This document shows positions 26,599-32,726 of a DNA stretch of 64,000 bases, piece by piece. A program made the translations under genes and the position numbers. The stretch is from Dictyostelium discoideum (taxonomy: Eukaryota), in contig CM000154.2 of assembly GCA_000004695.1 (NCBI GenBank), positions 4,320,001-4,384,000 of the forward strand, read 5' to 3'. Each line of letters starts with the position of its first letter. Position 1 is the first letter of the stretch. Under the pieces are notes generated by a model, which worked only from the letters and a program-made list of their open reading frames with translations, was not told where the DNA came from and made no database searches.

Positions 26599-27031
26599 TA
26601 AAATTAAATTTTAAAATTTTAAATAAAATATTTTTATTTAATATTTGTAATTACAATAACAATTTAATAATAATAAAAAAAAAAAAAAAAAAAAAAAAAA
26701 TTAAAAAAAAAAAATCAAAAAAAAATTTATTTTTAGTTTTTGATTAAAAACACCTTTTTTCACAAATTTTTTTTTTTTTTTTATTAAAAAATTGTTTTCT
26801 TCTTTCTCTCAATGGAAGGTGATAAAAATAAAGAAATTCTATTTTGGAAACTTTTTAGAAATGTTTATATTTTCAAAATAATTAAATCATATTTAAAAAT
26901 AAAAACCAACTCTTTTAGATTTGTAGGTTTTTTTTTTTTTTTTTTAATAGGTTGATATTTTTATTAATTATTAAATATTTATTTATAAAAAGGGGGTATA
27001 TAGTTATGATGAAATTAATAGTGTAGAATGG

Positions 27032-29692
27032 ATGATTAGAAATAACTATTATTCACTTTTAAGAGATAAAGTAATTAATGGTGATCCAAATTTATCATTT
27101 GTTTTAAAAACATGTTCAATACCAAATAATAATAAAGATTTATTCTTCTCAAAGAAATTAAATTATTTAGATATTGATAATGATGGTATTGATTTTTTAA
27201 ATAAAAATACTTCATCTTATAATGATATTTTAACAACAAAAAATAGTAGCAAGCATTTAAAAATGTTAAATTTAGAAAGAGCATTTAAATACTCACTTTT
27301 TAATAATGATAATAATAATAATAATAAAGAATTTATAAATGATAAACAATTTTATAGATCATTATTTAGAAATTATTATAATTATTTTTTATCATCTGAA
27401 CAACTACAACCTCAACAAACTTCACCTATACCAACACCAATACCAATACCAATACCAACTAATGGTATTATATATAAATTAATAGTTTATTATGATAATG
27501 ATATTGCATTAGATATAATAATAAATGAATATAAATTGTTAAAATTATCAACAGTTAATGATTACCAATCATTAATAATATTAGCAATTAATAATCATTC
27601 ATTTAAAGTTACAAATTATCTTTATAAATCAATCATTGAAAATCAAATAAAAATAAATTTTAATCATTCAATAATTTGGAAATCAATTTTTCCAATTTAT
27701 AAGAATAATGGAATACTAAATCTATTTTTTAAGAATAATAATAATGATAATTTAATAATTCATAAATCAACTAAAGTTGATCCAATAATTAAATATTTTA
27801 TATTAAATAATAATAACAATAATTTAGAATTTAAATTAGCAATTAAATCAGTACCAAAAGAACTTGAATTATTAAATTATAGAATCGATTATTTAGTATA
27901 TCAAGTAACAGTAGAGACATTATTAAATTCATGTTATAGTATTTCAATTCTAAATATATCATCAGAGATTTGGAAATTAAATAAATTAAATTTATGTAGA
28001 ATTAGTTTTGGTTCAAGTGATTCAATTATAGATAAACTATTACAAGAAGATTATCAAATATTATCAATTGATCAACTAAATCAATATAAATCCACATTAA
28101 TACATTTAAATGTTTTATCAACTATAATTAGCGATTTAGATTATAATAGTAATAATAATATTAATAATAATAATAATAATAATAATAATAGTAGTAGTAA
28201 TAATAGTGTTGAATTTATAATTTCCAAACTTATAAAAATGATTACATATTTTTCAGTAGATAAAAATACAATTAATAATCATTTATTTTATTCAATAATG
28301 TATTATAATCATAAAAAAGATGATGATGGCGATAGTAATAATAATAGTAGTGGTGATAATTTAAAAATAATAAAGAAAAGAAAGTTTTTTAAATTAATAA
28401 CAGGAATAGAAGAGAGAACTGTACTTTTTAAATATTGTAAAGGTAAAAGAGAATTACAAATTCAATTTTTAAATTATTTTTTAGAAAATCTTGGAAAAAC
28501 TGTACTTTTAAGTACATTCAAATTATTTATTGAATTAGATGTTCATTTAGAACTTATGGATATAATTACAAGAGAATTAAAATTAAAACTATTCAACAAT
28601 ATACCAACTCAACCACTCCCTCCTCATAATCTTTCTCAATATTCCTCAATAACCTATCAACAACCACAACAACAACAACATATTAAAACACCATTAGTAT
28701 TTGAAACACCAAATTCAATTAGAATGTTTGATTATCTTTATAATAATGATAATTTATCAATGTACAGATTTGAAATTAGTGAAATTTTATTTAAAAATAA
28801 TTTAGCAATAAACACTACTTCACCATATGATTTCAAAATAAATGAAAATGAAGATGAAAACAAAAAAGAAAATGAAAATAGAAATGAAAAATTAATAACT
28901 ATTTTAAATCATTTTAAAATAAACTATACATTAGATTATGAATCTCAATTGGAAAGAATTAAAAATGAAGTCATATCACCAACATTAAAACAATCATCAA
29001 TTAATTTCATCTTTAATAATTTTAATGATTTTAAAGAAATTATAATATCAATTTTTAATAATAATAATAATAATAATAATAATAATAATAATAATAATAA
29101 TAATAATAATAATAATAATAATAATAATAATAATAATAATAATAATAATAATAATAATAATAATAATAATAATAATAATAATAATAATAATAATAATAAT
29201 AATAATAATAATAATAATAATATCAATAGTATAGAAATTTTAAATAATATAAATAAATTAAAATATTTTTGTAATGGTTTAATAGATTGTTCAACCATTC
29301 AATTAATACCATTATATAATTATTTAGAAAATAATAGTAATAGAATAGAAGTTGAAAATGATTATGTTTTAGTTGAAATTTGTAAACGTGGTGATTTAAA
29401 TGGTTTAGAACAAATTTTAATAAGAAAGAATAAGTTCATAATAAGGAGGGTATTAAGTTGTTCAATATTTTTTGGCCAATTGAAGATGTTTGAATATATA
29501 AATAACTCTAAACATAGTTGGATATTCTCTCCTTTATCAAATACTACATTCCCACTTTCATTGTATGATTTTGACCAATTCACTAAATATGCAATCAAAT
29601 ATTGTCAACATAGTTTTATTGATTATTTTAGAGATGTATTAAAATTAAAATTAAAATTACTTTATAACAATAATAATAAATCTTTTATTTAA
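27032..29692 (+). CDS. hypothetical 886-aa protein, paralog A of a tandem pair; C-terminal region with ankyrin-like LVEICKRGDLNGLEQIL motif
   Basis: Long ATG ORF, with ~52 consecutive Asn codons encoded by (AAT)n at 29057-29221. A conserved mini-ORF 26809-26922 (MEGDKNKEILFWKLFRNVYIFKIIKSYLKIKTNSFRFV, ending GTAGGT) lies upstream and may be a 5' exon. I could not find a phase-compatible acceptor. Confidence 0.6.
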   Translation: MIRNNYYSLLRDKVINGDPNLSFVLKTCSIPNNNKDLFFSKKLNYLDIDNDGIDFLNKNTSSYNDILTTKNSSKHLKMLNLERAFKYSLFNNDNNNNNKEFINDKQFYRSLFRNYYNYFLSSEQLQPQQTSPIPTPIPIPIPTNGIIYKLIVYYDNDIALDIIINEYKLLKLSTVNDYQSLIILAINNHSFKVTNYLYKSIIENQIKINFNHSIIWKSIFPIYKNNGILNLFFKNNNNDNLIIHKSTKVDPIIKYFILNNNNNNLEFKLAIKSVPKELELLNYRIDYLVYQVTVETLLNSCYSISILNISSEIWKLNKLNLCRISFGSSDSIIDKLLQEDYQILSIDQLNQYKSTLIHLNVLSTIISDLDYNSNNNINNNNNNNNNSSSNNSVEFIISKLIKMITYFSVDKNTINNHLFYSIMYYNHKKDDDGDSNNNSSGDNLKIIKKRKFFKLITGIEERTVLFKYCKGKRELQIQFLNYFLENLGKTVLLSTFKLFIELDVHLELMDIITRELKLKLFNNIPTQPLPPHNLSQYSSITYQQPQQQQHIKTPLVFETPNSIRMFDYLYNNDNLSMYRFEISEILFKNNLAINTTSPYDFKINENEDENKKENENRNEKLITILNHFKINYTLDYESQLERIKNEVISPTLKQSSINFIFNNFNDFKEIIISIFNNNNNNNNNNNNNNNNNNNNNNNNNNNNNNNNNNNNNNNNNNNNNNNNNNNNNNNINSIEILNNINKLKYFCNGLIDCSTIQLIPLYNYLENNSNRIEVENDYVLVEICKRGDLNGLEQILIRKNKFIIRRVLSCSIFFGQLKMFEYINNSKHSWIFSPLSNTTFPLSLYDFDQFTKYAIKYCQHSFIDYFRDVLKLKLKLLYNNNNKSFI
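29057..29221. repeat. (AAT)n ~55 units, coding poly-Asn inside 27032-29692
   Basis: Read directly. Paralog B has only ~20 units at the corresponding place (31217-31275). Confidence 0.95.
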
Positions 29693-32619: not shown

Positions 32620-32726
32620 ATTAATTTTAAAATTAAATAATTTTATTTACATCTTATTTTTTTTTTTTTATTTTTTTTTTATTTTTTTTTTTTTTATTTT
32701 TTTTAAAAATATTAACTATAAACTAA

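Follow-up and report, generated by a model that had tools for sequence, protein, structure and literature searches.

Public annotations already model as two-exon genes the pair of tandem Dictyostelium discoideum genes considered here. The pair lies in a window of 64,000 nucleotides (nt) of AT-rich, poly-Asn-rich DNA (assembly GCA_000004695.1, contig CM000154.2, positions 4,320,001 to 4,384,000, forward strand; the coordinates below count from the first letter of this window). In the assembly GCA_054883475.1 (CM142511.1), which matches the window at 99.5% identity over 22 kb, both genes are annotated from the ATGs of two small open reading frames (ORFs), with products of 936 and 893 amino acids (aa). 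The same contig also encodes a protein identical to DDB_G0290323 of strain AX4, from which the window is taken to be AX4-like. In an ORF listing of the window, the genes appear as two long ORFs at 27032-29692 (886 aa; copy A) and 30088-32619 (843 aa; copy B), which are collinear paralogs, and the small-ORF ATGs are found at 26812 in A and at 29858 in B, 220 and 230 nt upstream of the respective main ATGs. An initial annotation, made from the letters of the window, had placed such a conserved peptide-coding ORF about 220 bp upstream of each gene, as is the case, and had left its nature undecided. These mini-ORFs are almost certainly the first coding exons of two ordinary two-exon tandem paralogs, joined to the main frame by a phase-0 GT-AG intron.

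Exons and introns of the two copies

All GT...AG pairs that connect the small ORF with the main frame, free of stop codons, were enumerated. Exactly one junction is both common to A and B and retains the whole of exon 1, namely 26923-26992 in A and 29969-30048 in B, in phase 0. The initial annotation had failed to find a phase-compatible splice between the two frames; such a junction is present in both copies. The genes are accordingly divided as follows.

26812..26922, + strand: copy A exon 1 (the mini-ORF), 37 codons (111 nt), MEGDKNKEILFWKLFRNVYIFKIIKSYLKIKTNSFRF; its start ATG is annotated in the near-identical genome
26923..26992, + strand: copy A intron, 70 nt, phase 0, GTAGGT...AAAAAG, AT-rich and with a T-run
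26993..29692, + strand: copy A exon 2 including the stop codon, beginning GVYSYDEINSVEW-M(27032)IRNNYY
29858..29968, + strand: copy B exon 1, 37 codons (111 nt), MESDKNKEILFWNVFRNVYIFKIIKSYLKIKTNSFRI
29969..30048, + strand: copy B intron, 80 nt, phase 0, GTAATT...AAATAG
30049..32619, + strand: copy B exon 2 including the stop codon, with a spliced product of 893 aa

The spliced products of A (936 aa) and B (893 aa) contain no internal stop. Copy A reads ...NSFRF|GVYSYDEINSVEWMIR... across the junction, or ...KTNSFRF|GVYSYDEINSVEWMIRNNYY with a longer N-terminus, and copy B reads ...NSFRI|GVYSYDEINSVEWMIK..., or ...KTNSFRI|GVYSYDEINSVEWMIKNNYY; the tryptic peptides predicted to span the junction are FGVYSYDEINSVEWMIR (A) and IGVYSYDEINSVEWMIK (B). 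Both introns are placed after codon 37. The donor-like GT that had been noticed at the end of the mini-ORF is indeed there (GTAGGT at 26923, GTAATT at 29969), and the supposed 38th codon, a 'V' (GTA), is the donor itself. The ORF had been taken to comprise 38 codons; its frame has no stop at codon 38 and extends into the intron, to 47 codons in A and 74 in B, where the stops are non-homologous. As had also been described, a poly-T run and a conserved TATATAGTTATGATGAAATTAATAG(T/C)GTAGAATGG block follow in both copies, and the main frame stays open upstream, to 26975 in A and exactly to 30049 in B, where it ends at the acceptor because the acceptor TAG is the closing stop. The codons at 27032 and 30088 are not starts but lie inside the coding sequence, where they specify the conserved Met of a W-M-I motif.

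Another junction can be drawn in copy A, from a donor at 26927 (GTTTTT) to an acceptor at 27026 (GTAG), which would take out 100 nt and read ...FRFV|EWMIR. It is open and phase-compatible in this copy, but it has no equivalent in copy B, the conserved Y.Y.EI.SV segment would be lost, and the annotated length of 936 aa would be unreachable, so that its use is extremely improbable.

The phase-0 junction common to both copies is also the one that the annotation of the near-identical genome implies. In the span of each gene in GCA_054883475.1, a single GT-AG intron of the needed length yields an open product, and this is the intron proposed here; the annotated 936 and 893 aa therefore correspond to removal of 26923-26992 and 29969-30048, because only these introns reach such lengths. 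The proteins from these genes are identical to the window models of A and B. The closest database protein, ACTFIR_002588 of GCA_054859385.1 (hereafter P0001), starts MESDKNKEFLFWKVFRNVYIFKIIKSYLKIKTNSFRF|RVYSYDEINSVEWMIR. The P0001 locus (L001) is syntenic with the window: a C2-domain gene precedes the pair, and a SnoaL-like gene of four repeats follows it on the opposite strand. The DNA of this locus is about 90% identical to the window, and both tandem genes are found there, with products of 893 and 899 aa. P0001 is the exact translation after removal of a homologous 71-nt GTAGGT...AAAAAG intron, and in its tandem partner (899 aa) this site holds an intron of 76 nt.

Differences between the window and GCA_054883475.1 over the 22 kb amount to 14 mismatches and 17 gap openings, and thus are apparently mostly gaps. 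One of them concerns the T-run of the copy B intron (29971-29998), which has 26 nt in the window and 22 nt in GCA_054883475.1, giving introns of 80 and 76 nt, respectively. The assembly GCA_054859385.1 carries the label 'Dictyostelium discoideum', and yet its syntenic DNA matches the window at only about 90% over 22 kb. A divergence of about 10% is far above the 0.5% between the window and GCA_054883475.1, so that this assembly may stand for a cryptic species.

Introns have been tabulated with a median of 103 nt, a mean of 143 nt and an AT content of 89%, taking the table columns as they read (PMC2483917), and against these figures the size and AT-richness of the introns of A and B are typical of D. 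discoideum. Several points weigh against the two-exon structure. The donors are unlike between the copies, GTAGGT in A and GTAATT in B, and the acceptor of copy A is AAAAAG, not TAG. Exact look-up in the protein collection returned neither the spliced proteins nor the unspliced forms. The splicing itself is deduced by comparison and from annotations that were made automatically and are predictions in their turn. If the genes are expressed as two-exon genes, transcription would start upstream of 26812 and 29858, splicing would take out the 70-nt intron of A and the 80-nt intron of B, and translation from the exon-1 ATG would give the 936- and 893-aa proteins.

Distant paralogs and the upstream ORF

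The initial annotation had read the mini-ORF either as a 5' exon whose junction is not obvious or as a conserved upstream ORF (uORF). In the latter, the mini-ORF would be a regulatory element, a separate short peptide controlling a main ORF that starts at ATG 27032 or 30088. The mini-ORF does have its own ATG, 220 or 230 nt upstream of a main ATG that is independent of it in frame. Its homologous residues are, however, fused to the body of the protein in seven paralogs of 25-35% identity, which are single uninterrupted ORFs with the mini-ORF homolog contiguous with the body.

D. firmibasis, intronless: P0002 and its tandem neighbour Dfir_757 (757 aa)
D. cf. discoideum, intronless: P0003 and its neighbour Dcf_841 (841 aa)
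Other intronless paralogs: P0004; P0008; P0010 of D. purpureum

Since the coding sequence is fused in these seven intronless paralogs, the uORF reading is rejected, and little chance is left to it by the remaining evidence. The conserved GVYSYDEINSVEW residues sit upstream of the supposed main start, and the stretch Y.Y.EI.SV.W, located between acceptor and main ATG, ranks among the best conserved when 40 N-termini of the family are aligned. The mini-ORF frames close at stops that A and B do not share (after 47 and 74 codons). The phase-0 GT-AG junctions are kept in 4/4 orthologous or paralogous copies. When the intronless paralogs are aligned to the window by tblastn, consecutive residues match the mini-ORF and then the DNA from 26984 (A) or 30049 (B) onward, which is the signature of a spliced alignment. 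Of the two readings offered, the 5' exon thus stands, with a junction that is plain instead of non-obvious, and the uORF falls on the intronless paralogs. The initial annotation had also proposed searching for the mini-ORF peptide in other dictyostelids, and homologs are found in the D. firmibasis, D. cf. discoideum and D. purpureum paralogs.

The same phase-0 GT-AG site is used in the L001 genes, in the L005 and L007 genes of GCA_054883475.1 and in an eighth paralog, P0007, which has a 109-nt phase-0 intron there (SSFIG|GKYKYDEI) and a second intron further on. The site is occupied in A, B and P0007 and empty in seven of the eight other paralogs, and the intron within the conserved module could be a lineage-specific gain.

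A tandem family pair is also found at a second, unlinked locus, in D. firmibasis (L002, 5340-10343, 757 and 780 aa) and at the same place in D. cf. discoideum (L004, 3217-8400, 841 and 799 aa). Both of these pairs are intronless and lie next to a PA14/Dicty_CTDC gene. Tandem pairing seems to be recurrent in the family. By tblastn with family proteins, no copies beyond A and B were found in the 64-kb window.

Gene calls based on the longest ORF, that is from ATG 27032 or 30088, would lose 50 N-terminal residues (37 of exon 1 and 13 of exon 2), and the conserved N-terminal module would be halved. Where Dictyostelium DNA is AT-rich, a conserved short ORF upstream of a gene, ending at a GT with a T-run behind it, is normally the first exon. 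Beyond correct annotation the result is of little importance. The gene structure is ordinary, and the family is uncharacterised and restricted to one lineage.

Age of the duplication and the poly-Asn tracts

The presence of collinear paralogs in a tandem repeat of about 3 kb, as initially described, is borne out by blastn of A against B, which delimits the following units.

26767..29699, + strand: duplicated unit A (blastn of A against B, 87.9% identity)
29815..32626, + strand: duplicated unit B (from the same blastn)
29700..29814 (about 115 nt), no strand: spacer not common to A and B, outside their blastn alignment

The aligned segments are 26767-29099 and 29143-29699 of A with 29815-32161 and 32076-32626 of B, at 87.9% identity. 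The period of the tandem is 3046 nt and the unit size is about 2.9-3.05 kb, unit A extending from about 45 nt of 5' leader ahead of the exon-1 ATG to a few nt beyond the stop codon.

The duplication had been called recent, with the caveat that conservation upstream of the main ORFs might be uninformative, if the entire 3-kb unit had been duplicated so recently that this alone explains it. The overall identity of 87.9% is in line with such recency, but identity along the units is heterogeneous. Exon 1 is identical at 105 of 111 positions (94.6%), and for the intron the identity is 77%, with gaps at 10 positions. The upstream and downstream DNA is 60-65% identical (about 60% upstream), which is the background for such a composition, and the flanks can no longer be aligned. 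Furthermore, the motif encoded by the mini-ORF is kept in paralogs at 25-35% identity, across Dictyostelium species. The distance between A and B, estimated by the Nei-Gojobori method over 846 ungapped codons, is also considerable, with 0.145 synonymous (dS) and 0.081 non-synonymous (dN) substitutions per site and a dN/dS ratio (omega) of 0.56. The ortholog pairs formed with L001 have dS values of 0.049 and 0.132, with omega of 0.40 and 0.31, and parsimony-informative sites back the orthologous pairing at 138:13:4. From these site counts and dS values, it follows that the duplication is older than the split from the lineage diverged by about 10%, in which both copies are present. Recency as the source of the upstream conservation is therefore scarcely credible, and the duplication, as dated from these alignments, is moderately old and predates the lineage split, not 'recent'.

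Both copies are still constrained, since their frames are open and dN/dS is 0.3-0.56. Within exon 1, comparison of B1 with Aw and A1 gives 5-6 synonymous and 1-4 non-synonymous changes (dS 0.35-0.43, dN 0.012-0.048), and in the four other pairs non-synonymous changes outnumber synonymous ones. In two stretches of the alignment, codons 346-420 and 518-596 (about 27900-28130 and 28430-28670 in copy A), A and B are 97-98% identical, and the informative sites there (3:3 and 0:2) no longer favour the orthologous pairing. Either strong constraint or local gene conversion could account for this near-identity.

The coding sequences of the copies also carry long poly-Asn tracts.

29057..29221, + strand: pure (AAT)55 poly-Asn tract of copy A
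31213..31275, + strand: (AAT)21 poly-Asn tract of copy B; the homologous region of A holds (AAT)9 at 28163-28189

The initial annotation had compared these as one tract differing between the paralogs, with 55 and 20 AAT. The counts are right, being (AAT)55 and (AAT)21, while the comparison does not hold, as the two tracts are non-homologous in the A/B alignment. Opposite the 55-Asn tract of A, copy B has NNNINHTNNNSNIN, an interrupted stretch of 14 residues; opposite the 21-Asn tract of B, copy A has a 20-residue segment that includes the (AAT)9 region. At the position of the 55 Asn of the window, the L001 ortholog of A has only 10, and therefore the tract of copy A has expanded recently. The (AAT)55 tract is a case of fast, recent trinucleotide expansion inside a coding exon.

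The protein family and its relation to known proteins

A Pfam scan of A and B gave no family at E<=1, and P0001 is likewise without a hit, including to Ank. In a search of 1.84 billion representatives with a profile built from five members, 58 clusters (defined at 50% identity) were found at E<=1e-3, 29 of them at E<=1e-10. Most of the 58 representatives are 650-1000 aa long and match end to end. All ten representatives whose source was looked up are from Dictyostelium, namely D. discoideum (AX4 and other strains), D. cf. discoideum, D. purpureum, D. citrinum and D. dimigraforme, and members from D. firmibasis were also found in the homolog search. Judged by these ten representatives, the family is restricted to Dictyostelium. 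The AlphaFold model of P0001 from a 48-sequence alignment is all-helical, with a predicted local distance difference test score (pLDDT) of 72 and a predicted template modelling score (pTM) of 0.74, while a model on a 5-sequence alignment was unusable (pLDDT 39.7). Foldseek against the PDB returned nothing significant, only generic alpha-solenoids at E>0.07. The members are presumably degenerate helical-repeat (solenoid) proteins, weakly ankyrin-like, and they would probably act as protein-binding scaffolds or adaptors.

The N-terminus is formed by a module of about 70 aa, E.LFWKVFRN..L...IF...Y.Y.EI.SV.WMI.N....LLK.KV, which is encoded by both exons and split by the intron. It has no Pfam model, and the ankyrin-repeat bodies behind it are degenerate in some proteins and bona fide in others. 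The module is all that the weakest relatives match, and genuine Pfam ankyrin repeats are present in several of these. The module may be a common docking or adaptor element. Cryptic N-terminal F-boxes on Dictyostelium repeat proteins have been discussed, and the family of A and B does not appear to be among those examined there (PMC9485057). An F-box was looked for in ten N-terminal modules without any Pfam match at E<=10, and a profile of 40 modules gave only noise (E>1) against the PDB sequences, so that a cryptic F-box finds no sequence support in either search. It is unlikely, at this stage, that the module is an undescribed Dictyostelium-specific domain serving as a common adaptor, for example as a cryptic F-box-like Skp1-docking element that would make these proteins substrate receptors of Skp1-cullin-F-box (SCF) complexes, with an intron gained in one lineage. 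The family, with its Pfam-less N-terminal module, offers a modest starting point for work on adaptors of the repeat-protein type in social amoebae.

The tandem pair has neighbours on either side. Upstream of copy A lies the C2-domain gene (25695-26598, + strand). It contains a (TAT)n run at about 25975-26075, which appears in the raw ORF list as poly-Tyr of more than 30 residues and is probably intronic, because the annotation of the C2 gene in the near-identical genome has an 884-nt span and a 233-aa product. Downstream of copy B, a 621-aa ORF on the - strand (32727-34592) consists of four tandem repeats of about 140 aa, THDIRANLEAIIKGIQ...QQWSNGL(V/I)IKEEFN, joined by Thr/Pro/Ala-rich linkers and 87-95% identical to each other in DNA. 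Pfam marks it only faintly, as SnoaL-like, and it has a 623-aa counterpart in the diverged lineage (L001). Further downstream in the window, at about 43200-44640, is a gene with a weak Pfam mark for FNIP repeats (corresponding to L007 1-1431).

Among named proteins, DDB_G0290323 (Q54G82), DDB_G0284967 (Q54NV7), D. purpureum DICPUDRAFT_149926 and D. firmibasis RB653_009318 are end-to-end profile matches (E 1e-123 to 1e-28). Like A and B, they have the N-terminal module and a length of 650-1000 aa, although they share only 22-35% identity with A and B. RB653_009318 and DICPUDRAFT_149926, unlike A and B, are intronless at the intron site. DDB_G0284967 of AX4 bears the automatic UniRef name 'Ankyrin repeat protein'; A, B and P0001 differ from ankyrin-repeat proteins in having no Pfam Ank match at E<=1. 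The closest likeness is to the pairs of GCA_054883475.1 and of the ACTFIR genome, annotated as genes for hypothetical proteins, which differ from the window in homopolymer and poly-Asn lengths and share with A and B the locus, the synteny, the two exons, the start codon and the intron site.

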